64,000 nt of DNA from Prochloraceae cyanobacterium (GTDB lineage: Bacteria > Cyanobacteriota > Cyanobacteriia > Cyanobacteriales > JASJDA01), in contig JASJDA010000031.1 in NCBI GenBank assembly GCA_030065755.1, positions 4,000-67,999 on the forward strand, read 5' to 3'. This document shows, one piece after another, positions 4,209-57,330 of this stretch. The notes below the pieces were generated by a model. That model saw only the letters and a list, made by a program, of their open reading frames with translations, did no database searches and was not told where the DNA came from. Within the stretch, counting starts at the first letter, position 1. The number at the start of each line of letters is the position of its first letter. The translations under genes were made by a program, and so were the position numbers.

Positions 4209-5675
4209 TTATGATTCGCTTGTCATACTTTGCTCTAATGACTGCTGCAAGCGAACTTTATCTAATCCTTTTTGAGAGAGTAACAACCAAGATTGAATTA
4301 AGTCTGGCCCTTGTAATTCTCCCATTAAAGCGGCACGAAGCGATCGCATGACTAAGCCTTTTTTGACTTTCGCTTGTTTGGTCACTTTTTTGACTATATC
4401 TTTAGCATCGTCTTGAGTGAGTTGAGAGTAACTTTCAATTGCTTCTTTTATGCTGGTGAGGATTTCTCCTACTCCTTCTTTTTGCAATTGCTCGATCGCG
4501 TCTTCGCTATATTCTAGTGACTCTCCCAACAGCAAGCGGCTTTCTTTTGGCGCGTCGCTCAAACGAGTTAAACTAGGGCCAATTAAAGCTGTCAAAGTTT
4601 CTAACCAGGGTCGATCGCTTTCTAAATCCACTTTATACCCTGCTTTTTGCCAGTAAGGAACTAACAATTCCACTAGCTTGTCTGCTGGCATATTATGAAT
4701 ATACTGAGAATTGATCCAATCTAATTTTGCCCAATCGAATTTTGCTCCTGCTTTGTTAACCCGATCGAGGTCAAATTTTTCTGCTGCTTGAGATAGGGTA
4801 AAAATTTCCTCGGTTGAGTCTGGTGGAGTCCAACCAAGCAAACTCATATAATTTGCCATTGCTTCTGGCAAAAATCCCATTTCTTTGAAGTCGTCAATGG
4901 ACGTAACTCCATCTCTTTTGGACAATTTCTGTCCTTTCTCATTCAAAATTAGGGGGGTGTGGGCAAATTCTGGCACTTTTGCCCCTAGCGCTTCGTAAAG
5001 TAGAATTTGTTTGGCAGTGTTAGCTATGTGGTCTTCTCCTCGGACGACGTGGGTAATTCCCATATCCGTGTCATCTACTACCACTGCTAGGTTATATAAT
5101 GGCTGACCGAATTCTGCTTCGGGGTTTTCTGCAGCGCGGGCTATGACCATATCGCCCCCTAGATCGCTAGCTTTCCAGGTTACTTTTCCCCTAACCAGAT
5201 CGTTCCATTCTATAAGCCTTTCGTCTTCTATTTTAAAGCGAATTACTGGTCTGCGTCCTTCGGCTACAAACGCTGCTTTTTCTTCTTCTGTGAGGTTGCG
5301 GTGGCGGTTGTCGTAGCGGGGGGCTTGCTTTCTAGCTTTTTGTGCCTCCCGCATCTGTTCTAATTCTTCTGACGTACAATAGCACCGATAGGCTAAGCCT
5401 TTATCTAATAATTGTTGAATTGCCTTTTTGTAGAGATCTAATCTGTTAGTTTGAAAAAATGGCCCTTCATCCCAATTTAAACCCAGCCAAGTGAGTCCCG
5501 ATTTGATGTTCTCAGTGTATTCTGGGCGCGATCGCTCCGTGTCCGTGTCTTCTATTCGCAGTATAAATTTACCGCCCTGGTGACGGGCAAACAGCCAGTT
5601 AAATACTGCTGTTCTCGCTGTTCCTATATGTAAATTTCCTGTTGGAGAAGGAGCAATGCGAACTCTTACCGTCAC
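4209..5675 (-). CDS. gltX: glutamate--tRNA ligase
   Basis: Class I aaRS HIGH-type motif ([12 protein letters not shown]) and KMSKS-type motif (KLSKR). Length and overall sequence are typical of GltX. Confidence 0.95.
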
Positions 5676-5855
5676 TATCTGTCCTCTTTTCTTTCTTTAT
5701 CTAGTTTCTTGCTAGATATTCATTGTAAGCTCCCCCTGCTCTAAAGAGAAGAGGCTTTCACCTCCGTTTCAATAAAGCAAGTTACATTTTAGTAGCCCTC
5801 ACCAATAACTCTACTCAGAATATAGTGTCTGTTTAGCGTAGTTTATTTTTATGCG

Positions 5856-6041
5856 ATGGCTAGGAATAACGTATTTAATTTAAGATTGTCTGATGAATAA
5901 TTATTAAGAATTAAAGCTTATGCAAAGTCTAAACAGATGTCACCAGCCAAAGCACTAAGGGATTATATTAAACGACTACCAAAAATTAATCCTGACGGCG
6001 GTTTTAACCGCTGCGTCTCATTTCCTCCGTCCTATGAATAA
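5856..6041 (+). pseudogene. ribbon-helix-helix (CopG/MobC-like) small gene with an in-frame TAA
   Basis: Hand translation gives MARNNVFNLRLSDE*LLRIKAYAKSKQMSPAKALRDYIKRLPKINPDGG.... It has an RHH-like beta-strand/helix pattern. A single in-frame TAA lies at 5898-5900, and the frame continues to a TAA at 6039-6041. Confidence 0.35.
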
Positions 6042-6100
6042 GGTCTGCTTCCACGCTTCCGTGTTATTTTCTTAACATATTTATTCTATTTTTTTTTCTA

Positions 6101-6174
6101 CGGGACTGACGGGGCTCGAACCCGCGACCTCCTGCGTGACAGGCAGGCATTCTAACCAACTGAACTACAGTCCC
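6101..6174 (-). tRNA. tRNA-Asp (anticodon GUC)
   Basis: The reverse complement reads GGGACTGTAGTTCAGTTGGTTAGAATGCCTGCCTGTCACGCAGGAGGTCGCGGGTTCGAGCCCCGTCAGTCCCG. The acceptor stem is GGGACTG/CAGTCCC, the anticodon loop is CTGTCAC, and the T-loop is GGTTCGAGCCC. No CCA is encoded. Confidence 0.9.
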
Positions 6175-6362
6175 AATTTTTTATCCGCATCTCATCATAA
6201 CAACTATTCAATTTATTTGTCAAGTTTTTTTTTGTCAGAAGCGAAGGCCAATTTCGATCTTTCTTATGAAAACTTAAAAATACTATTTGGCGATCGTCAA
6301 TCCTCCATACTGAAGCGTTAGATTATCTATATTAATGTCGAAAGTAACCTCAAGGAGACTCT

Positions 6363-7154
6363 GTGCTGGAGTTATACCAATTCGAGCTGTCGCAATACTC
6401 AGAAAAGGTGCGCCTGATTCTAGACTACAAAGGACTAGAATACAAAAAAATAGAAGTAACTCCTGGTGTGGGACAAGTGGAAGTGTTTCGCCTCTCCGGT
6501 CAGTCCAAAGTGCCAGTTTTAAAGGATGGAGATACAGTCGTTGCTGATTCGACTGAAATTGCCTTTTATCTAGACCGCAAATACCCTGAAAAACCAATTA
6601 TTCCTACCGATCCCCTACAAAGAGGACTGTGCTTGTTAATGGAAGAATGGGCAGATGAATCCATCGGGATTAAGGGTCGTAAAGCTTTTTTGGGAGCATT
6701 GAACCAAAATCAGAACTTTCGCACTTCTATTTTGCCCCAAGAGACTCCCGATTTGCTCAAAAACTTAGTAGGTGCAGTCCCGTCTGAATTGCTTTATATT
6801 TTGGGAACTCCTCTCGGTTCGGGTCGGGATGCAGTTAAGGAAGCCCAAAGAGATATCAAACGAGATTTAGAAGCTCTCTGTCTAATTCTGACTGAACGTG
6901 CCCATCTAGTTGGCGGTCAAATTACTTTAGCAGATTTAGCTGTAGCTGGACTTAGTATTATTCTCAAGTTCCCAGCAGGTTCTTATCTGAATTTACCAAA
7001 AGAACTTCAAGGAAAAGGTATTCCTGGTTTGGCTGACAATAGTGCTTACGAGCCATTTTTCAACTGGCGCGATCGTCTTTATTCTGAGTATCGCAAGCCA
7101 TTGGCTTCTACTAGCACTTCAAATTCATCTCCTACTTCTATAGAAATCGAATAA
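6363..7154 (+). CDS. glutathione S-transferase family protein
   Basis: GTG start. The N-terminal thioredoxin-like GST fold is present (LELYQFELSQYSEKVRLIL...SKVPVLKDGD..ADSTEI), followed by a C-terminal helical domain. Confidence 0.75.
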   Translation: MLELYQFELSQYSEKVRLILDYKGLEYKKIEVTPGVGQVEVFRLSGQSKVPVLKDGDTVVADSTEIAFYLDRKYPEKPIIPTDPLQRGLCLLMEEWADESIGIKGRKAFLGALNQNQNFRTSILPQETPDLLKNLVGAVPSELLYILGTPLGSGRDAVKEAQRDIKRDLEALCLILTERAHLVGGQITLADLAVAGLSIILKFPAGSYLNLPKELQGKGIPGLADNSAYEPFFNWRDRLYSEYRKPLASTSTSNSSPTSIEIE

Positions 7155-7197
7155 TTCACCTAGAGGCGATTACTTAACTCAATAGAAGTCGGTTAAA

Positions 7198-7245
7198 GGG
7201 AATAGGGAACTGTTATTTCCTGCTCCCTGTTCCCTGTTCCCTGTC
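7198..7245. repeat. STRR-like GGGAA(T/C)A heptamer units arranged as an imperfect palindrome between convergent genes
   Basis: The sequence is gggaatagggaactgttatttcctgctccctgttccctgttccctgtc. Forward units are followed by reverse-complement units (CCCTGTT x3). It could act as a bidirectional terminator hairpin. Confidence 0.6.
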
Positions 7246-7280
7246 AAGCACTCGCCTCCAGAGGAGATCGGGCTAAAGAT

Positions 7281-7796
7281 TTATGTTAGAAATACTTTCC
7301 TTGCTGGGAGGATGTTTTTCTTTGCTAAATACTCGTGAATTTGTTGAGGAGTAAGTTTGCACAAATCTTTTGCTAACTCTATAACCTTAATATTTTTTAC
7401 CAGTAATGGGCTTAATACTTCTCGCAACAACCCTAATATTTGAGGTTCGGCAACCAAAATAACTTCTACAGCTTGGGAAACCTGACTCAATCGAACAATT
7501 TCACTGACAATATCTTTGGCAAAACTGCGCTCGAATTCGATCGCGTGAGACTCTCGGCGATCGTCGTAGCCGTGTGCTTGACCGTTGGAACCGCGATTGC
7601 GTCCTGTTTTAGTATTTGCCCAAAGTTCTTTACCCTGGAGTTCGTTAGCCTGATTGCACAGACATTGACTTTCAACTAAATTTGGCCCTGACTGGTATTC
7701 GGGTAATTTTGCTGATTCTAGTTTAAAAAAGCGAGCTCTCGTTCCATCAATAACTGCAACTATGGATTGATTCATTTTTAACCAGACATTAAGCAT
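7281..7796 (-). CDS. host-attachment-protein family protein (Host_attach-like)
   Basis: The N-terminal signature VAVIDGTRARFF and the overall size match my memory of the 'protein required for attachment to host cells' family. The true start is probably the internal Met (MNQSIVAV) at about 7775. Confidence 0.55.
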   Translation of the reverse strand: MLNVWLKMNQSIVAVIDGTRARFFKLESAKLPEYQSGPNLVESQCLCNQANELQGKELWANTKTGRNRGSNGQAHGYDDRRESHAIEFERSFAKDIVSEIVRLSQVSQAVEVILVAEPQILGLLREVLSPLLVKNIKVIELAKDLCKLTPQQIHEYLAKKNILPARKVFLT

Positions 7797-8308
7797 TTAA
7801 TAATTTTATCTTTACCACGCGAAATTGTGGTGCGATCGCACTGTGAAATAAAGCTTAAACTTCATCTCTTTTAGGGCGCGAATACTCTCAAAATAGTTTT
7901 GGGAAAGGATTCACTATTAAAAAAAAGCGATCGCACTATCGTCTTCCCCTACTGGGCGATCGCAACTACTATGGAGTTAAGTGGCTGGAGAAGATCTCAA
8001 TGCAAACCACAGCATCAATACCAAAATTAATACGCTGCTTTTTACGATGAGGTAAATTGTAGCATTATTGTAGAGAAAAACGTTCGTCATTTTTTCCCTC
8101 TCCTTTTGCAACTCTAAAGGAGAGATGTTAGGCTTCACACAATCTCAATAAGATCTACCAAGGCTTGAAGCACTATCACTTTAGTGGGGGGTGCTAACTA
8201 AGTTAAGTTAGAGGTTAAACAGGGCGCGATCGCCTTCATCTCTCTATTTGTTTCTATCTTGCTACTAAAAACGGTTGCGATCGCTAATTGTTTACCAAAT
8301 TTTAATGT

Positions 8309-9673
8309 CTATTCAGTTTTCTTCTCATTTTTTGGTCGCCAACCTTTTTTTACTACCTGACGAGATCTAGCAATTACCAAAGCATCGTCGGGAACGTCTT
8401 CTGTAACTACACTTCCTGCAGCCACATTTACGTCTTCTCCTAAATTGACTGGTGCAACTAAAACGCTATTAGAACCTGTTTTAGTGCCGCTACCGATCGT
8501 GGTCGGATGCTTGTAAGTTCCGTCATAATTGGCTGTAATCGTTCCTGCTCCTATGTTAACGCGATCGCCTAAGATAGCATCCCCCAAATATGACAAGTGA
8601 GCTACATTGGTATTATTTCCTACCTCTGTCTTTTTCAACTCGACAAAATTACCAATTCGGCACGACTGACCTATCTTGACATTTCCGCGTAAATGTGCAT
8701 ATGGTCCAATTCTACTTCCAGATTCTACCCGAGAGTTTGTCACCACAGAATAGAGAACGGTAACATTTTCCCCAATATAACTATTTTCGATCGACGTTCC
8801 AGGGCCTATGCGACTGCCAGAACCAATAAAAGTATTGCCCCTAATGTGAGTTTGGGGTTCAATAATTACGTCTGGCTGTAATTCTACGGTGTCGTCAATA
8901 GTAATACTATCTGGGTCGAGCGCCGTAACTCCTGCTGTCATCCAAGCATCTTTGACCCGCGTTTGCAGAATTTTATAAGCTGTTGCTAATTGCTTGCGAT
9001 CGTTAATTCCAGTAATTTCTAAATAATCTTCCACGTCATAAGCCATTACTGGTTCTAAAAATTTAACTACATCTGTTAAATAATATTCCTGCTGATCGTT
9101 ATCTGTAGTTAATTTTGGCAGTACTTGCGCCATTTTCGGCCAATTGAAACAGTAAACCCCTGCATTAATGCGGTTATTTTGCTTTTGCGCTGCGGTACAA
9201 TCTCGATCTTCAATAATTTGTTCGACCAAATTATTTTGGTCGCAGAACACCCTTCCGTAGCCTTTAGGATCGGGTAAACGAGCGGTCAAAATGGTAGCCG
9301 CGTTCTGATTTACTATGTGAATATCTAATAAATTTTTTAGAGTTTCGGGTCGCAATAAAGGAACGTCTCCATTTAAAACGACTAAATCGTCGTTAAAGCC
9401 TTGTAGGTGGGGCAAAAGTTGTTGAATGGCGTGACCTGTTCCCAATTGTTCGGTCTGTTCGACGTATTCTAAGTTGGGATTTTTTTGGAGGGTTTGTTTG
9501 ACAAGTTGGGCTTTATAGCCAACTATTACTAAAGATCTTGTCGGCTCGATCGACTGACAACTATTGAGAACCCTTTCCACTAGCGTTCTTCCCCCTAAAG
9601 GATGTAAAACTTTAGGTAGGTCAGATTTCATGCGGGTTCCGCGTCCGGCTGCTAATATTGCTACCGCTACCAT
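8309..9673 (-). CDS. glmU: bifunctional UDP-N-acetylglucosamine diphosphorylase / glucosamine-1-phosphate N-acetyltransferase
   Basis: N-terminal LAAGRGTRM nucleotidyltransferase motif, a C-terminal left-handed beta-helix with hexapeptide repeats, and a length of 454 aa. Confidence 0.95.
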
Positions 9674-9758
9674 CGCTCTTATCTCTTAGTTGTTCCGACC
9701 AGAGTATAGCGCGTTCTGAGCAGATTCGATCGCTCATTCGCAAAGCTCAGCTCTATTT

Positions 9759-10748
9759 TTATCTCATTCCCACTTCAGAAACTATTTGGCTAGCATTAAT
9801 AAATGCTGTAAACTTTCCTACCAGTTTTGAATTGCGCCATCCTTTAGCTGCTTCTTCTGCGAGAATGTCTAAAGCTTCAGTGGGAGTCAGTGGCTTTTTA
9901 TAAGGTCGTTCGCTGATTAAGGCTTCATAGATATCGAGAATTTGAAATATTTGTGCCAGCCAAGGAATTTCATTACCCTTCAAACTGTCAGGATAACCAC
10001 TACCGTCCCAACGTTCGTGATGATGCCTAATAATTGGCAGTATGCCTCGTCCTTTTAGTGGCTGACAAATTTTTTCTCCTACTAAGACGTGCTTTTCGAT
10101 CGTCTCTCGTTCGGAGTCAGTGAGTTTCCCTTTTTTGAGCAGTACGGAATCTGGAACGGCTACTGTGCCAATATCGTGTAGATAGGCTGCGTATACCAAA
10201 TTTTTTATATCTTCTTTGGATAATTCTAGATACTCCCCAAAGGATTTAGCTAAAGATATGAGTTCGGCAAAAGAGTGTCTGCGATCGCAACTTCTACTTT
10301 CAATTGCTGTTGCTATTGAGAATAGCAATTGTTCGGTTTGGTCTAAACCTTCATAAAGGCGCTTTTGCTCTATTATCGATCGTACCCTTGCCGAAAGTAG
10401 CAGGCGATCGAGGGGTTTAACCAGCAGATCGTCACCTCCTGACTCTATGCATCTCAGACGAGATTTTCTATCGTCGGAAACTCCTGTTAAAATTATTCTT
10501 GTCAAACAAGTTCGTCTATCTTGCTTGATGTGCTTACACACTTCAAATCCATCTGTGTAAGGCATCATCACGTCCAGCAATACTAAATCTGGGTTATTTC
10601 GTACTACCTGAGTGATGATATCTGAGTTTCCATCTGTCTCTACTACCTGATAGCCATCTAATGACAGCAAATCTAACATTTGAGTACGGCTATAGAGATT
10701 GTTATCTACAACAAGAATTTTGGCGGAATCGGATTTAAAAATATTCAC
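9759..10748 (-). CDS. response regulator with an HD-GYP phosphodiesterase output domain
   Basis: A REC domain is present (ILVVDN...DLVLLDVMMP...K). It is followed by an HD domain (YLHDIGT) and the HHERWDGSGYP motif. Confidence 0.85.
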   Translation of the reverse strand: MNIFKSDSAKILVVDNNLYSRTQMLDLLSLDGYQVVETDGNSDIITQVVRNNPDLVLLDVMMPYTDGFEVCKHIKQDRRTCLTRIILTGVSDDRKSRLRCIESGGDDLLVKPLDRLLLSARVRSIIEQKRLYEGLDQTEQLLFSIATAIESRSCDRRHSFAELISLAKSFGEYLELSKEDIKNLVYAAYLHDIGTVAVPDSVLLKKGKLTDSERETIEKHVLVGEKICQPLKGRGILPIIRHHHERWDGSGYPDSLKGNEIPWLAQIFQILDIYEALISERPYKKPLTPTEALDILAEEAAKGWRNSKLVGKFTAFINASQIVSEVGMR

Positions 10749-11205
10749 GGCGCACTATATTATCGCTAATTTATATCCTCCAATTGGCTTATTTATTTTT
10801 CCTATATGGAGATTTTTATTGGGGCCTATCTTTGGCGAAGCCAAGGAAGCAGGCACTCTAATAAGCGGAGCTATACTTTAACGAAAACTTAATACAGTAT
10901 GGCAGAAACAAGTCATTAATGTCTTTAGTTTTTCTTTTTTTCCTTTTTGGCGAATTTATAAAAATCATCTTTTCATATAAATATTGTAATGCGGCATTGC
11001 CTTGTTAGGATTAAGTTCAGTGAATCCACGTAATTTAACTAATTATCTAAGAACAACTTTAGTGGATCTTACTTGGATTGTTCGTCGTTTATTTAGTTTT
11101 TTTTCTTAAATTTAAGTGATATCACTTACTCGATCTTTTGGATATTTATTTTCGATTGTGCTAATAACTCTTTCGAATTATAGTACATTTTAATTGTTAA
11201 TTTGA

Positions 11206-12078
11206 TTATTTCGAGTCATGGTAATCAGACCAACGCTTTTTCCAACGGGTAGTAGGTTCCAAATAACTAGCTTGTTGTTCGGCAAATCGTCGCTGACAAA
11301 TAAGTTGAGGTGAATCTTTTAATTGAGGATCTCTATAGGGAACAGCCGCACGGGTATTTAAATGTTCTAATTCTTGCTGGGATAGGGGGGGAATTTCTGT
11401 GGCGACTTTGCCAGCAACTGTTCCTGGCGATCGTCGGCCAATACGACTAGTCGAGCCAAACTTTAACCCAGTTAAGCCTATAGCCGCGCGTACCGGAGCA
11501 GCACAAGAGTATGTAGCAAGTCTTCCTGTAGGTGCTAGACACATTGCTACTAATTGCAAAAATTCTACTGTCCACAGTTGGGGGCATTTGGGTGGAGAAA
11601 AGGGATCGAGAAAAATGGCATCGGCCCTAAAGGGGGAATTGAGTACTTGTTGAATGGTTTTTCGGGCGTCCCCTAGCAATAGCTTCCCTTGTAATTGGGG
11701 GGTTTTAATTTCTCCTGATTCTGCTAATGCAGTTAGCGATCGGCAGATTGTTTGGGGCCACCCATTTAGTAATTGACCCTCGACAGCCTGACGAGGCACT
11801 CTCAAATCTATCTCTAAAGCAATAAGCTCGACGCAGCATTCAGGATTGATAGATTGAATAGTTGTTAGTGCCGCCGCACTATTGTAACCAAGTCCGTAGC
11901 AAATATCTAACAGGCACAATCTAGAATTAACTCGCGCTTTTTCAGCTATATTACAGGGTTTGACAAATTTTTGGGCTGCTTCTAACTTAGCCCCAGCTCT
12001 CGAATGAAAAGCTTCGCCCAACTCGTGGTTAAAGAAGGTAAAAGAACCATCTTCTGTTAATTTGGGTTCAAACGACAT
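11206..12078 (-). CDS. MnmC/MnmD-like SAM-dependent methyltransferase (DUF752 type)
   Basis: FHSRAGAKLEAAQKFV, LLDICYGLGYN and AIFLDPFSPPKCPQLWT match the C-terminal methyltransferase module of tRNA mnm5s2U enzymes. Confidence 0.65.
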   Translation of the reverse strand: MSFEPKLTEDGSFTFFNHELGEAFHSRAGAKLEAAQKFVKPCNIAEKARVNSRLCLLDICYGLGYNSAAALTTIQSINPECCVELIALEIDLRVPRQAVEGQLLNGWPQTICRSLTALAESGEIKTPQLQGKLLLGDARKTIQQVLNSPFRADAIFLDPFSPPKCPQLWTVEFLQLVAMCLAPTGRLATYSCAAPVRAAIGLTGLKFGSTSRIGRRSPGTVAGKVATEIPPLSQQELEHLNTRAAVPYRDPQLKDSPQLICQRRFAEQQASYLEPTTRWKKRWSDYHDSK

Positions 12079-52447: not shown

Positions 52448-53128
52448 ATGTCAATACAAATAGAAGCTAAAAAGCAAACTCGTCTTTTACTAAATTTGTG
52501 GAATTTAGGTGGAATTGAAAAGGAAGTTAAATTAGGAGAACTTAACAAGCAAGTAAAACTGAATAAAGAAAAGGCAAAAGACTATCAAAAAATATACGAT
52601 CGATTAGAAAAAGAAGAAGCGATCGCCCTGACAAAGAAAGGTAACTCTACAAAAGTTTCTTTGACAAATAAGGGTTTGCAAATGTTAGATGCTGGAATTA
52701 AAAGTCCAGACTTTAAGTATAAGCCTACGCAAAAAGTTAGAACCAAAGATTTTAACGCTTTATTAAAGTGGATCGAGCATTTAGATATTGCAGTGAGTCC
52801 TAATAATCCTAATAATGGGAATACTAACGGCAAGCAAAGCGAAATAGTTTCTTACGAAGAATTTAAACAAGTAGCCTTGGATGTTTACGAAAAGCTAAAT
52901 AAAGGCTATAACTACGACGATTTAGTACCAATTTATCGCATCAGAAGAGAAATTGGGGAAAAGGTCGATCGAATTCAGTTTAATGAATGGCTGTTAGAAA
53001 TGCAAGCTAACGATATTTTCCAGCTTATGGAAGGTAGTGTCGAAGATAGCGCTCCAGATAAGATTGAAGATTCGATTACTACTGAACTTAGCGGACTGCG
53101 CTGTTATGCAAAGCGTTTAGTTGCATAG
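52448..53128 (+). CDS. hypothetical protein, two predicted winged-helix-like modules (gene A of the candidate system)
   Basis: The N-terminus (LLLNLWNLGG...IALTKKGNSTKVSLTNKGLQML) and the C-terminus (VPIYRIRREIGEKVDRIQFNEWLLEMQANDIFQLMEG) both look like wHTH DNA-binding modules. They are separated by an N/P-rich linker. This is inference only. Confidence 0.55.
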   Translation: MSIQIEAKKQTRLLLNLWNLGGIEKEVKLGELNKQVKLNKEKAKDYQKIYDRLEKEEAIALTKKGNSTKVSLTNKGLQMLDAGIKSPDFKYKPTQKVRTKDFNALLKWIEHLDIAVSPNNPNNGNTNGKQSEIVSYEEFKQVALDVYEKLNKGYNYDDLVPIYRIRREIGEKVDRIQFNEWLLEMQANDIFQLMEGSVEDSAPDKIEDSITTELSGLRCYAKRLVA

Positions 53129-53186
53129 ACGCAACACAACTATTTTTGCACATTTTATTCACTTAGAGAAACTTTTTGCCAAGACC

Positions 53187-54986
53187 ATGACTTTTTCTCC
53201 ATCTCAAATTCAAGACAAACAATTAGAAAATATTATTAAAAATTGTAATCCCTTCGATCGAGAAGTAATTGTTACAAAACAAGCTATTTGGAAAGAATCA
53301 TTTCCCGATGTTCCTTCTATTAATGCTGCTGCTTCCGATGCCGTTTTTAAGGCGATCGATAACGTTAGTAATGGACATCGTAAAGTTATAGGTATAACTC
53401 ATAGGGCTGAAAGAGGAGTAGGAAAAAGCCACATTATCAGTCGCATTCGCAGTCACATTAAAACTGAAGGTAATGCCTTTTTTGTTTATATGGGCGAATA
53501 TAGCGATTTAGATAAAATAAAACTCGAATTCCTCAATATTTTATGTGCAAGCCTCAAACAAGAAGGTTTTCAAGGAGTTATGCAATGGCAAGAATTAGCG
53601 GCTGCTTTGGTCAATGAAGCACTAGATAAAAAATATAACCTTCAAACGATACTTGAAGTTTTTCCTAATTGGTTTAAACAAACAAAACATAACTTAGTTA
53701 ATCAATTAACTCAACAAATTCTTGAGATTAAGTCTGACATCGAAGATCCCGATCTAATAACAGCAATTGTTTGCACACTTCACCCAACTTATAAAGCTTT
53801 TGCGATCAAGTGGCTTTCTGGCAAAAGTTTAACCACATCGAAAGCTGAAGAAATGGGATTACCTAATCCTAGTGAAGAGGAAAGAGAAGCTGAATGTTTT
53901 AGTAAAATTTGTCAGATTCTAGATGTAATTAGCAATTATAAAACAATAGTAATCTGTTTTGACGAACTAGATAGTACTGATTATTCTGAAAGTGGTTTTA
54001 CTAGGGCGCAGATAGTAGCTAGTTTCATTAAAGATTTATATAACAACATTAAACGGGGTGTTTTTCTAACAAGTATGTACCCTCAAACTTGGAGTAATCA
54101 TATTAATTCTTTACCACAAGCAGAAGCAGTTGTCGATCGCATTGGCTCACACATCATTGACCTCAAATATCTTAATTCTAATGACGTATTGACTTTAGTT
54201 TCTTGTTATTTAAAAGAGTTTTATACCGAACAAGGATTAACACCTCCTCATTCAGTTTATCCTTTTACAGAGACTCAATTAAGAACACTAGGGACAGAAA
54301 GACCCACCGTTAGAAAGGTTTTAAATTGGTGTAAGGATAAATGGAGGTCAGGTCCAATAATAGATCCACGTAAATTAGCTTATAACAATGAGCTTCAAAA
54401 TATTGAAGCAGATTTTATGGAGGATAAAGCAAAATTAGCGAAAGCAATGATTTTTGCTTTTAATAGAATAATTGGACAAAAAGTAGAAGGGGTTCAAGTA
54501 GAAAAAATTGAAACTATCCTAGAGCCTTACAATGAATATATAAACTTCAAAATTATTGGAAAAGAAAAAGGAAAAACTGTCAAAATTGGTGTGGCAATAA
54601 TGCAATCTTCCAATGGCAACAGGATTGGGGCTTGTTTAAGACATTTAAGTCAATATCAGATATACGATCTGACCCGCGGTTGTTTGGTTCGTTCTACAAG
54701 AATTAATCCTACTTCAAGAGTAGCCCGTCAAAGATTAAATGTACTTTTAAATGAAAAACGAGGAGCATGGGTCTTATTAAAAGAAGAACAAGTTAGACCT
54801 TTGATTGCCATTTATGCTGTTTATAGTGCTAGAGAAAATTATGAGTTAAGTGATCGAGAGATTTTTGAGTTTATATCTCAAAAAAAATTAGCATTAGATA
54901 ATCCTTTACTAAAAGAAATTTTGAGTAATACTTGCGGAAAAATACCTGAAAATGCAGATGATGAAGATATAGTTTATGGAAGCTAA
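53187..54986 (+). CDS. P-loop NTPase (STAND/ORC-like AAA-type), gene B of the candidate system
   Basis: Walker A AERGVGKS is at 53406-53429 and Walker B IVICFDELD at 53946-53972. The track ORF starts at an alternative TTG at 53121, overlapping gene A. The ATG at 53187 is chosen here. Confidence 0.7.
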   Translation: MTFSPSQIQDKQLENIIKNCNPFDREVIVTKQAIWKESFPDVPSINAAASDAVFKAIDNVSNGHRKVIGITHRAERGVGKSHIISRIRSHIKTEGNAFFVYMGEYSDLDKIKLEFLNILCASLKQEGFQGVMQWQELAAALVNEALDKKYNLQTILEVFPNWFKQTKHNLVNQLTQQILEIKSDIEDPDLITAIVCTLHPTYKAFAIKWLSGKSLTTSKAEEMGLPNPSEEEREAECFSKICQILDVISNYKTIVICFDELDSTDYSESGFTRAQIVASFIKDLYNNIKRGVFLTSMYPQTWSNHINSLPQAEAVVDRIGSHIIDLKYLNSNDVLTLVSCYLKEFYTEQGLTPPHSVYPFTETQLRTLGTERPTVRKVLNWCKDKWRSGPIIDPRKLAYNNELQNIEADFMEDKAKLAKAMIFAFNRIIGQKVEGVQVEKIETILEPYNEYINFKIIGKEKGKTVKIGVAIMQSSNGNRIGACLRHLSQYQIYDLTRGCLVRSTRINPTSRVARQRLNVLLNEKRGAWVLLKEEQVRPLIAIYAVYSARENYELSDREIFEFISQKKLALDNPLLKEILSNTCGKIPENADDEDIVYGS

Positions 54987-55009
54987 TTGATTTAAGGAAT
55001 ACAAGACAA

Positions 55010-56479
55010 ATGGATAATAATAGATCTATTTCCATTGCTACAGCTTTACGCTTACCAGCACCAGATATAACAGCATTAATAGAAGGTCGATCGCTGGTAG
55101 CTATATCTCGCATTTTTATCAACCCAGAAAAAACATTTGCTCTTTATCCCAGCGATACTTCTAGTAATGCTTTACCTAACCAACAATATTATCGTCCTAA
55201 TTTTCTCGATACAGCAGAAAAAGCGATCGCAGAGTTGAATGACCATACTGTTGACATTAAAGCATGGGCGAAGTGCTATAAATGTGAAATTATTAACCAA
55301 GAAGATAAGGATAGTTTTGAGATCCTGTCTCAGCTTACAGTCTGGACTGAGGATGCTTGGGAAAAAACTATATCCCAACGAGGACATATATTTTTAACTT
55401 ACCTCAGAGTGTATCCTTTACCCGAAATACTCAATATCCCTGTTTCTTCTAACTCTCGCTTCGTCTCCTTACCAATACCGATCGCACTCAGCCAAATAAA
55501 CCCAATATTAAGCGATCTCACTTTCGATCGACGCAGTCATGAGTTAGAAAACCGCATCCCACCAAAACATCCAGAATTAGAACAACTAATAAGTGGTCTT
55601 GCTCCTCTTTCAGATAATAACCTGGGTGCTAAACAACTCGATCGCAATATAAGAAACTTTCTCGGTTGGAATAATAAACAGTCCGAGTCAAATATAGACC
55701 CCGATCTAATCTGGATAGAAAGAATAGCTACAGTTGGAAACTCTAGCGACGGTAACGAGTTTGAAAAATTAGTAAGAAAAGGTTTAATTAAGTTAGGTTT
55801 TGGCAACTATAATACCAATCCTAAAGCAAGTCTCGATCCTGAAGCTACTGGAGGGGCTGGAGGAATAGATTTCTATTGCGAAACTCCTTATCCAGTAGTA
55901 GGAGAATGTAAAGCAACCCAAACAGAAACAGTCCCCAGTAGCACACCAGGACAACTAATTCAATTAGGTAACAATCATCTGGGTAGAGAGAAATACGATC
56001 GCTGTCTCAAATTAATTGTAGCGGCTGGCAGACTAACACAAGATGCACAACTTACGGCTATGAACAATCAAATAAGTGTAATTCGTCCCGAAACTTTGCA
56101 AAAATTAGTAGAAATGCAAGCAAAATATCGAAACTCGATCGATCTTTTCAAACTTAAAGAATGCTTGCAAGATGCTTATGGTTTAGCCGACGATCGAGTA
56201 GAAGAATATTTAAGAGACATCAGTCAAGAAATTGAAATAAGATCGCACATAGTCAAAGTTGTTAAAAATTATTTAGAAAATACTCAATCTAAGGATGTCG
56301 TGCTAGAAGCCATACATGGAGCTTTTGTTAATTCCAACCCACCCAAACCTTTAAACAGAGAAGAAATAAAAGACATTTTAATCGAATTATCTTCACCGCT
56401 AGCAGGATATTTAGGACGCAAAAGAGGAAGAAATGGAGCCGATCGCTTTTATTTTTTGCGAGATTTATCGATTAATTAG
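55010..56479 (+). CDS. DUF1802-like N-terminal domain fused to an Mrr-type PD-(D/E)xK restriction-endonuclease-like domain (gene C of the candidate system)
   Basis: The C-terminal half has NEFEKLVRKGLIKLGF...GGAGGIDFYCE...VVGECKA. The Asp is at 55868-55870 and E-C-K at 55904-55912. This is the Mrr_cat signature. The N-terminal ALRLPAPDITALIEGRSLVAISR...FALYPS...IFLTYLRVYPLP pattern recalls DUF1802. Confidence 0.7.
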   Translation: MDNNRSISIATALRLPAPDITALIEGRSLVAISRIFINPEKTFALYPSDTSSNALPNQQYYRPNFLDTAEKAIAELNDHTVDIKAWAKCYKCEIINQEDKDSFEILSQLTVWTEDAWEKTISQRGHIFLTYLRVYPLPEILNIPVSSNSRFVSLPIPIALSQINPILSDLTFDRRSHELENRIPPKHPELEQLISGLAPLSDNNLGAKQLDRNIRNFLGWNNKQSESNIDPDLIWIERIATVGNSSDGNEFEKLVRKGLIKLGFGNYNTNPKASLDPEATGGAGGIDFYCETPYPVVGECKATQTETVPSSTPGQLIQLGNNHLGREKYDRCLKLIVAAGRLTQDAQLTAMNNQISVIRPETLQKLVEMQAKYRNSIDLFKLKECLQDAYGLADDRVEEYLRDISQEIEIRSHIVKVVKNYLENTQSKDVVLEAIHGAFVNSNPPKPLNREEIKDILIELSSPLAGYLGRKRGRNGADRFYFLRDLSIN

Positions 56480-56595: not shown

Positions 56596-57330
56596 TCAGT
56601 TTCCAATTATCCATTTAAAAGCACTGTCAACATCAGTAACGCGATCGCCTTCTGGCATTATGGGACGTTTAATGATGACTGCAGGTAAACCCAGTTCTCT
56701 AGCAGCAATTATCTTGGCAATTGTTGCTTCACCACCGCTATTTTTGCTAACAATTGCCTCGATCTGGTATTTTTTTAACAACTGGCGCTCTTCTGTTAAA
56801 TCAAAAGGGCCTCTTTCCAATAATAAATGTCCCTTGGGAATTGGTTTATCGGATGCTGGAGGTTCGATCGTTCGCATCAGAAACCAAATATCCTCTAAAT
56901 AACTAAAAGCAGCTAATTCTTGTCTGCCAATAGCCAGAAAGACTCGCTTTGCCAAACCTGGAAGTACGGCTACAGCAGCTTTAAAGTCATTTACTTCAAT
57001 CCAGCGATCGCCTTTTATTGGTTGCCATGGGGGACGCACTAACATTAAATGGGGAATACCACAGATTTTTGCTGCTATAGCCCCATTAAAGGAAATTTGT
57101 GCTGCAAAAGGATGGGTCGCGTCAATAAGTAGAGCGATCGCATTATTTCGTAGATAAGTCACTAAGCCTTCTGTTCCGCTAAAACCTCCTATTCTAGTGG
57201 GTACGTGAATCTTGGCTGGCTGACTAGTTCTACCTGCTAGAGAAACAATAACTTCTATTCCCTCAATAGTTGAAGCTTTAACAGCTAATTGAGAAGCCTC
57301 TGTGGTTCCACCCAAGATTAAAACTCGCAT
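56596..57330 (-). CDS. cobK: precorrin-6A / cobalt-precorrin-6A reductase
   Basis: MRVLILGGTTEA start, a length of 244 aa, and a CobK/CbiJ-like sequence throughout. Confidence 0.85.
   Translation of the reverse strand: MRVLILGGTTEASQLAVKASTIEGIEVIVSLAGRTSQPAKIHVPTRIGGFSGTEGLVTYLRNNAIALLIDATHPFAAQISFNGAIAAKICGIPHLMLVRPPWQPIKGDRWIEVNDFKAAVAVLPGLAKRVFLAIGRQELAAFSYLEDIWFLMRTIEPPASDKPIPKGHLLLERGPFDLTEERQLLKKYQIEAIVSKNSGGEATIAKIIAARELGLPAVIIKRPIMPEGDRVTDVDSAFKWIIGN

Follow-up and report, generated by a model that had tools for sequence, protein, structure and literature searches.

A predicted ORC/Cdc6-type ATPase with a putatively inactive nuclease fold in a three-gene cassette of cyanobacteria

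A 64,000-nucleotide stretch of a Prochloraceae cyanobacterium genome (NCBI GenBank assembly GCA_030065755.1, contig JASJDA010000031.1, positions 4,000 to 67,999 of the forward strand; this whole stretch is referred to as the window) carries a gene, here called gene B, which lies between two others, A and C. The locus raises the question of which class of nucleoside triphosphatase (NTPase) gene B encodes, what its C-terminal region contains, where the gene begins and what it does together with its neighbours. The product is predicted to be an AAA+ ATPase of the ORC/Cdc6 clade that continues into a nuclease fold, most likely a dead one, and to serve as the ATPase subunit of a three-gene operon, A-B-C, found in about one fifth of cyanobacterial genomes. 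Our preferred explanation, held with moderate confidence, is that A-B-C carries out a restriction-like attack on foreign DNA with an McrBC-like division of labour. B is a typical member of a cyanobacteria-wide family whose architecture had already been predicted in print in 2024.

We found more than 1,500 homologues of gene B; a relative is encoded in 418 genome stretches, and all named sources are cyanobacteria. Invariance counts were taken from an alignment of 47 relatives (48-94% identical), and residues are numbered from the ATG codon at position 53187. An AlphaFold 2 (AF2) model of the full-length protein, built on the alignment, had a mean predicted local distance difference test (pLDDT) score of 84. 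The original prediction, made from the window sequence without database searches, described an NTPase of the P-loop type in which helices are inserted between the Walker A and Walker B motifs, and both the motifs and the AF2 model bear this out. It had set the core at residues 70-330, counted from an upstream TTG codon; this corresponds to about 48-308 from the ATG and is close to the core of 66-330 seen here. The strands of the model span residues 67-73, 97-102, 253-258 (which carries Walker B), 291-297 and 322-325, and are followed by a lid at 331-384. Within Walker B, position 260 is glutamate in 36 of the 47 relatives and glutamine in the other 11, and position 262 is aspartate or glutamate in all of them. 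An NPF...W motif in the segment that precedes the core is also present in divergent clades and in RcaG-like paralogues from the same genome.

ORC/Cdc6-type ATPases are marked by an insert that follows strand 2, an arginine ahead of strand 5 and a lid made of helices (bioRxiv 10.1101/2025.10.09.681413). B has all three: an insert at residues 108-249 between strands 97-102 and 253-258, R318, and lid helices at 331-384. The insert occupies the initiator-specific (helix-extension-helix) position of ORC/Cdc6 proteins and contains the conserved motifs QW (133-134) and W209-L-S-G212. When the model was compared with the PDB by Foldseek, the best matches were Cdc6 (1fnn, E 5e-5), archaeal Orc1/Cdc6, ORC4, HslU, BrxC and RdrA; the Foldseek probability to Cdc6/Orc1 was 1.0, and the TM-scores were low, as expected for a multi-domain query. 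The original prediction of an ORC- or STAND-like ATPase rather than one of the ABC or SMC kind was therefore supported by these matches.

Pfam describes this core less specifically. B matches KAP_NTPase at 26.9 bits against a cut-off of 20, over model positions 4-165 of 293 only, which is the half from Walker A to Walker B, and gives weaker matches to AAA_16, AAA_22 and NPHP3_N. Across the 47 relatives, AAA_16 matched 45, AAA_22 matched 40, KAP matched 35 (at E ≤0.01) and BrxC_BrxD matched 4 weakly; one relative is labelled 'KAP NTPase domain-containing protein' in UniRef. No membrane helices were detected in B, where the highest 19-residue Kyte-Doolittle mean was 1.15 against a usual threshold of 1.6, and the insert was modelled as soluble helices. 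NCBIfam gave no membership: DS41_1_antiphage reached 34 bits against 370 and ATPase_Sll1717 33 against 75, and these sub-threshold scores reflect similarity of the P-loop core only. The original prediction had named a well-known KAP- or BrxC-type family with its usual partners nearby as the case that would overturn it, and we did not find that case. Because the KAP match covers half the model, membrane helices are lacking and no KAP or bacteriophage exclusion (BREX) partners lie near, B is not explained away by an established family. On its modelled fold, we place B with the AAA+ proteins of the ORC/Cdc6 clade and not with the KAP, STAND or BREX proteins.

Sequence searches of B against PDB chains, with the single sequence and with a profile, returned only designed repeat proteins and one weak YTH match. 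The latter, to the YTH domain of YTHDF1 (E 0.008, 17.8 bits), covers residues ~190-262 (53754-53972), a region modelled as all-helical, and is probably due to chance. A literature search returned nothing relevant on DUF1802, a domain of protein C, and nothing on sll1717.

The original prediction saw no known motif in the C-terminal ~270 residues. This stood as far as the libraries go, as residues 330-599 have no Pfam, NCBIfam or PADLOC match, but modelling divided the region into four pieces: the AAA+ lid, a degenerate PD-(D/E)xK fold, three short helices and an acidic tail. Mean column identity is 62% in the C-terminal region and 63% in the ATPase; conserved as well as the ATPase, the region appears to be a genuine domain rather than an artefact of the reading frame. 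Residues 388-599 were also modelled on their own with AF2 from 57 sequences, and this model reached a pLDDT of 89.6 and a predicted TM-score (pTM) of 0.86. Its first three strands are antiparallel, and nearly all of its best Foldseek matches were PD-(D/E)xK nuclease domains (MspJI, Cap4, AspBHI, PaqCI, HamA, Can2, FokI, Avs3/4 and EcoO109I). We thus assign residues 412-532 to the restriction-endonuclease (REase) fold with moderate confidence, on the strength of the model.

The nuclease fold of B is most likely catalytically dead, judging from the conservation of its active-site positions. The strand-2 aspartate, residue 453, is aspartate in 37 of the 57 sequences and asparagine in the window, and position 464, two before K/R466, is variable and holds no conserved acidic residue. 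The most conserved motif of the fold, T496-R-G-C-L-V-R-S-(K)504, is not a nuclease motif; the window alone has T504. Five of the last 14 residues of B are D/E and none are K/R. When a profile of the C-terminal region was searched against 1.84 billion representatives, it retrieved 149 clusters, and the match always fell at about residues 400-610 of B-like proteins. Because only B-like proteins were matched, the module appears to be private to the B family. A sensor or docking role for the region is plausible.

A set of 80 genomic loci, pulled with the family profile, was used to compare gene order. A-B-C synteny was found in 76 of the 80, with A 50-59% and C 38-60% identical to the window proteins. 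Protein A gave winged-helix matches in Pfam below threshold, to SelB-wing_2 in 12 of 38 orthologues and to DUF6293_C. Protein C matches DUF1802 (E 4e-28) and, weakly, Mrr_cat. In a set of 75 sequences (the window protein and 74 orthologues), its catalytic residues E251, D287 and E299-x-K301 are each at least 90% conserved, and C is likely to be the effector of the cassette. A second clade keeps the A-B-C order at much lower identity to the window proteins (A ~38%, B 28-29%, C ~36%). Because all three proteins diverged in parallel with their order kept, A, B and C appear to evolve as a unit.

Three diverged lineages encode proteins of ~895 residues (P0254, P0260 and P0274, from loci L096 and L097) in which B is fused to residues 244-489 of C (E 2e-40); one of the three is present in two assemblies. 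The nuclease and the C-terminal end of C follow directly after the C-terminal motif of B, and DUF1802 is missing. Fusions of this Rosetta-stone kind point to a joint physical action of B and the nuclease of C. At L096, the A gene upstream of the fusion is apparently reduced to small open reading frames (ORFs). Further B relatives, P0301 and P0316 (~805 aa) and P0317 and P0343 (~790-827 aa), have different domains fused at this same place, behind an acidic linker; one such addition is a ~120-aa domain with a '...F.L.G..Y.V.SW...' motif, and another is an unrelated domain of ~200 aa. Tandem arrangements were also seen. At L094 (G022:C56, 1245-7386, minus strand) an extra B copy of 611 aa, 40% identical to B, lies directly upstream of a full A-B-C and passes the Pfam BrxC_BrxD cut-off; comparable tandem B copies occur in G004, G021 and G026.

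In a different explanation, B is a self-contained KAP- or STAND-like immune sensor, its own C-terminal nuclease fold is an abortive-infection effector, and A and C are independent of it. This explanation draws on the KAP_NTPase score above the cut-off, on the D-x-L-[DE] form of Walker B, which we take to resemble the NACHT/KAP style, and on the C-terminal placement of a PD-(D/E)xK fold, as in Avs3/4. Two Symploca loci (L050 and L080) also have B (~47% identical) as a solitary gene, with neither A nor C within 6 kb. However, the catalytic positions of the fold in B are the unconserved ones described above, B has no repeat-type sensor domains, and A and C stand beside it in nearly all loci and diverge in step with it, so that we regard a self-contained sensor as highly improbable.

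For the restriction-like explanation that we prefer, the mechanism would be as follows. B would bind ATP and oligomerise on DNA through R318 as a predicted arginine finger, and its helical insert would contact DNA, as in ORC/Cdc6 proteins. B would thereby act as a nucleotide-dependent switch or clamp, and its dead nuclease fold and C-terminal motif would hold, present or license the active nuclease of C. Target recognition would come from A and from the DUF1802 domain of C. Most likely, DNA that is foreign or carries other modifications would be cut, through an NTPase motor or switch working with a separate nuclease.

The dynamics of the family are of the type seen in conflict: B is patchy, pseudogenes occur, a vWA protein takes the place of the third gene in some relatives (and an exonuclease-REase-FtsK giant does so in a more distant, RcaG-like pair of the own genome), and divergence is about five-fold that of the flanks. 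We sampled 38 good genomes of the same order and 377 good genomes from 156 genera across the phylum. B was present in 19 of the 38 and in 72 of the 377 (19%), the latter in 33 genera, and several copies were split or contained stop codons. It was also found in one of the two other sampled genomes of the window's genus, at 42% identity. At two loci (L090 in G013 and L092 in G414), a B-like ATPase 28% identical to B is followed by a vWA-domain (TerF-like) protein in place of C; the ORF at L092 is 926 aa. In Nostoc punctiforme PCC 73102 (CP001037; locus L081, 11866-13981), C is shortened to 399 aa and a DDE transposase gene lies directly after it, and the cassette is probably inactivated in this strain.

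A comparison with the nearest strain (contig L095, which has the same flanks) showed where the divergence lies. Nucleotide differences amount to 4.1% in B, 5.1% at the start of C and 1.2% in A, against 0.85% (99.15% identity) in 9.2 kb of left flank; the excess in B has an odds ratio of 5 (p 1.5e-20). Residues 1-65 are the most divergent part of B (9.7% of nucleotides). The pattern around window positions 53187-55462 is a mosaic, as no difference occurs in the 58-nt spacer between A and B or over the final 204 nt of B. The ratio of nonsynonymous to synonymous substitutions (dN/dS) of B is 0.28 gene-wide, with too few substitutions per domain to interpret. The picture is that of a divergent allele which was imported or has long been maintained, rather than of relaxed constraint.

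Several results weigh against a defence role of the cassette. None of A, B or C matched a PADLOC model. Among 72,556 plasmids and 50,697 phage records we found no B relatives. In 37 loci, the two nearest genes to the left and right of the cassette were compared with Pfam and PADLOC: these flanks held 91 Pfam families, none in more than four proteins, and were mostly housekeeping genes that vary by lineage; only a few flanking proteins matched PADLOC, with no enrichment that would indicate a defence island. Conserved flanks in Nostocaceae point to stable vertical inheritance of the cassette. For the C-terminal fold of B, all Foldseek matches were weak (E 2e-3 to 0.1, TM ~0.3), and profile-profile comparison detected no similarity between the C-terminal domain of B and the nuclease domain of C; against the C-terminal part of the RcaG-like ATPases the result was not significant (E 0.24). 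Because the Walker B glutamate is replaced by glutamine in 11 of the 47 relatives and sensor 1 is not conserved among them, the ATPase of B may be slow and switch-like rather than a processive motor. A and B also appear, by sequence comparison, to be distant paralogues of RcaD/RcaG, not orthologues, and the defence role of members of this family is itself a prediction from comparative genomics.

Some of the same observations would fit a housekeeping or mobile-element DNA transaction, such as repair, programmed rearrangement or segregation of chromosomal elements in filamentous cyanobacteria. The ORC/Cdc6 clade includes replication initiators and transposition ATPases (PMC10853773), XisH/XisI genes lie downstream of the cassette in Moorena loci, and both the conserved position in Nostocaceae and the lack of B in the plasmid and phage collections agree with such a role. 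However, ~80% of cyanobacterial genomes lack the cassette, as does one of the two others sampled in the genus, and thus it is not essential. A recombinase or transposase was never a constant partner in the 37 loci, and no terminal repeats or integration signatures were seen, although no systematic search for them was made. We consider a DNA transaction of this kind very unlikely.

The relation to RcaD/RcaG raises a further alternative, namely that A and B are a transcription-regulatory pair of this type, in which A binds a promoter, B assists or gates it, and C is an accessory or acts at the same loci, with no part in immunity. RcaD has been described as a protein that binds DNA and activates phycobiliprotein operons, and RcaG as an ATPase encoded downstream of it, both in the context of chromatic adaptation (PMC2799420). 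In the same work, repeated pull-downs from cell extract with DNA of the jamaicamide promoter recovered the A orthologue of Lyngbya majuscula 3L (Moorena), 'All4300 protein 5335', and 5336, the B orthologue beside it, is 23% identical to RcaG; the Moorena orthologues are 22-23% identical to RcaD/RcaG (PMC2799420). We cross-checked indirectly that 5335 is the A orthologue: the N. punctiforme protein upstream of B is 217 aa, the length of the best BLAST hit in that work, and L001 is a 3L contig. The mostly housekeeping flanks are also in keeping with a regulator.

The window's own genome encodes two RcaD/RcaG-type pairs. At the first (L089, G000:C106:7000-21000, 5146-11702, + strand), a 289-aa RcaD-like protein is followed by a 690-aa RcaG-like ATPase (22% identical to B) and a 1078-aa giant with DUF4145, 3'-5' exonuclease, PD-(D/E)xK nuclease, FtsK-alpha and FtsK/HerA domains. 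The second (L088, G000:C223:42000-56000, 5569-8445, + strand) consists of proteins of 273 and 670 aa with no third gene and a convergent phosphoglucomutase gene next to it; its small protein is 46-50% identical to NCBI 'transcription factor RcaD' proteins and so falls within that family. The ATPases of these pairs contain the whole N-terminal module of B: they are 22-25% identical to B over its N-terminal 360 residues only (hhalign probability 99.4%), share with it the NPF...W motif, Walker A, a W-L-x-G motif in the insert, Walker B and the arginine, and carry ~100 more C-terminal residues.

Other evidence speaks against a regulator. Recombinant glutathione S-transferase (GST)-5335 gave no shift of the promoter probe, and the authors favoured another protein, 7968 (PMC2799420). 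Protein A resembles RcaD-type proteins no more than marginally (E 0.03), with a weak C-terminal motif in common. With this value and the distant identity of the ATPases, the comparison, which was made with the own-genome types, did not support orthology of B to RcaG. A regulator would leave unexplained the obligatory nuclease with an intact site, the natural B-nuclease fusions, the patchiness with pseudogenes and the five-fold divergence of B and C between near-identical strains. In addition, the own-genome pair at L089 precedes an exonuclease-REase-FtsK giant, a kind predicted to act against invaders (PMC10853773). On balance, a transcription-regulatory role for A and B is unlikely, but it is the strongest competitor of the restriction-like explanation.

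A bolder reading of the same kinship is that RcaD/RcaG-type pairs, A-B included, are neither transcription factors nor classical restriction enzymes but a single family of ORC-like DNA-loading switches. The dead fold of B and the Mrr nuclease of C would then form an asymmetric nuclease 'dimer' that fires once the ATPase ring closes on DNA marked as foreign by A and DUF1802. This reading would agree with the natural joining of B to the nuclease, with the exchange of the third gene (nuclease, vWA protein or exonuclease-REase-FtsK giant) and with allele-like differences between strains that are otherwise nearly identical; we think it doubtful. If it were true, the chromatic-adaptation factor RcaD/RcaG of 2002 would be a moonlighting or mis-assigned immune module.

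The start of gene B was called ambiguous in the original prediction. The ORF itself is present as described, running on the + strand from TTG 53121 or ATG 53187 to the stop, and the C-terminal peptides that had been quoted are found in its translation. A start at the TTG would overlap gene A by 8 nt, as had been noted, and was taken to imply translational coupling. Comparison across the 80 loci led us to reject both the TTG start and the coupling. Met1 is invariant in the 47 aligned relatives, whose length differences all lie within the C-terminal tail, and in 72 of the 80 loci there is no in-frame ATG, GTG or TTG between the preceding stop and the conserved Met. The stop of A lies consistently 28-122 nt upstream of that Met; because a spacer always separates A from B, the TTG appears to be due to chance and overlap-type coupling is ruled out. 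The 22 codons added by the TTG are conserved nowhere, their sole sharer being the near-identical strain, which has an identical spacer and is thus uninformative. A database record identical to the product of the ATG is 599 aa long. These comparisons settle the start at ATG 53187. In the window, the spacers are 58 nt between A and B and 23 nt between B and C, and scans for promoter and terminator consensus sequences within the cassette yielded no more matches than expected from shuffled sequence. Coordinates are collected in Table 1.

Table 1. Coordinates in the window of gene B, the predicted parts of its product and the adjoining cassette genes
Feature	Position	Strand	Remarks
Gene A, 226 aa	52448..53128	+	weak winged-helix signals; first cassette gene
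In-frame TTG extension, 22 codons, within A-B spacer	53121..53186	+	not part of gene
Gene B	53187..54986	+	599 aa plus stop; stop codon at 54984-54986
N-terminal segment, residues 1-65	53187..53381	+	invariant N21-P-F23, W35, P40, N46
Walker A, A74-E-R-G-V-G-K-S81	53406..53429	+	G77, G79, K80 invariant; position 81 S/T in 47/47
Helical insert, residues 108-249, eight helices after strand 2	53508..53933	+	AF2 secondary structure
Walker B, I253-V-I-C-F-D259-E260-L-D262	53943..53972	+	D259 invariant
Arg318	54138..54140	+	invariant 47/47, also retained by most divergent clades; lies four residues ahead of strand 322-325 (strand 5)
AAA+ lid, helical bundle, residues 331-385	54177..54341	+	invariant Y358-P-F360, R376 (candidate sensor 2), W381-C382
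Putative restriction-endonuclease-like (PD-(D/E)xK) fold, residues 412-532	54420..54782	+	alpha-beta-beta-beta-alpha-beta-alpha-beta; degenerate active site
C-terminal end, residues 533-599	54783..54983	+	three short helices (533-579), N572...L579-S-x-P-S-G584, disordered acidic tail
Gene C, 489 aa	55010..56479	+	DUF1802 + Mrr-type PD-(D/E)xK nuclease + conserved C-terminal end

In the window, the neighbours of the cassette are the gene of a PstS-like protein, pbpC and an ORF on the minus strand (56596-57330). In Nostocales loci (L005-L042), a divergent gene for a ~160-aa lipoprotein-like protein lies upstream of A, and a convergent pair encoding proteins of ~105 aa and ~120 aa (retropepsin-like D-T-G) lies downstream of C; none of these is in the window.

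For gene B the result is mostly clarifying, as its start codon, ATPase class and C-terminal identity are now settled or narrowed. The cassette as a whole occurs in about one in five cyanobacterial genomes, among them N. punctiforme PCC 73102, in which C is cut by an insertion sequence. The defence systems of cyanobacteria have been little mapped, and in many strains genetic work is hindered chiefly by restriction barriers. If the restriction-like explanation is true, the cassette would represent a distinct wiring of an ORC-type ATPase to DNA cleavage, consisting of a dead-fold switch, a live reader-nuclease and a winged-helix protein. The kinship with RcaD/RcaG makes the question of regulator or immune module directly testable.

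Among known systems, the closest in architecture is a class of Orc/CDC6 ATPases with an inactive REase inserted between the ATPase and a C-terminal winged helix-turn-helix (wHTH), for which a counter-invader role was predicted (PMC10853773, Nucleic Acids Res 2024). Two settings were described for it: one combines HerA/FtsK and active REases with 3'-5' exonucleases and DndG-like multi-wHTH proteins, and the other is an operon with an ASCH-fused REase and a DndG-like multi-wHTH protein (PMC10853773). Like this class, B has an Orc/Cdc6-type core followed by a catalytically degenerate REase fold. A-B-C resembles the second setting in having a separate REase with an extra N-terminal domain (DUF1802) and a small protein with a winged-helix signal, and the own-genome cassette at L089 resembles the first. 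We had inferred the dead nuclease fold of B before the published prediction was known to us, so that two lines agree independently. The published class is brief, unnamed and a prediction from comparative genomics. Unlike its C-terminal winged helix, the model of B shows three short helices and an acidic tail with no beta-hairpin wing. The N-terminal domain of C matches DUF1802 only, with no ASCH match by sequence, and A gives sub-threshold winged-helix matches only, its likeness to DndG not being confirmed by sequence.

With RcaD/RcaG of Calothrix (Tolypothrix) PCC 7601, A-B shares the order of a small DNA-binding-type protein followed by an ATPase of 600-700 aa. The C-terminal halves are not detectably similar when compared alone, A-B-C adds a dedicated Mrr-type nuclease, and no link to pigment regulation is known for it. 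ORC/Cdc6 and BrxC, the best structural matches of B, have in common with it the insert that follows strand 2, the arginine ahead of strand 5 and the helical lid; however, the 140-residue insert of B is far larger than the initiator-specific motif, and ORC/Cdc6 proteins are without an inactive REase domain. B is half the size of BrxC. An assignment to BrxC of BREX was rejected, as B of the window has no PF10923 match and no PglX, PglZ, BrxA, BrxB or BrxL lies nearby.

KAP NTPases (PF07693; PifA of plasmid F) have a long insert between Walker A and Walker B, as B does, and B scores over their gathering cut-off. Transmembrane helices inserted in the NTPase domain are said to be typical of the KAP family, though not universal, reportedly from Aravind et al. 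in 2004. In contrast, the insert of B has no membrane helices, the match covers half the model, AAA_16 and AAA_22 are the commoner matches, and the fold is that of ORC/Cdc6. STAND NTPases join their NTPase to a repeat-type sensor (TPR, WD40 or LRR) or to an effector domain in a single polypeptide. An assignment to them was rejected, as neither the Pfam matches nor the model of B revealed such repeats; the D-x-L-[DE] of Walker B alone is reminiscent of them. The likeness to McrBC and type IV restriction is mechanistic, not one of homology: in both, an AAA+ NTPase and a separate PD-(D/E)xK nuclease are encoded adjacently, and the nuclease-side protein has an extra N-terminal domain that may read the state of the DNA. 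McrB, a GTP-using member of another AAA+ clade, itself carries the DNA reader, whereas in A-B-C the putative reader belongs to the nuclease-side protein and there is a third protein, A.

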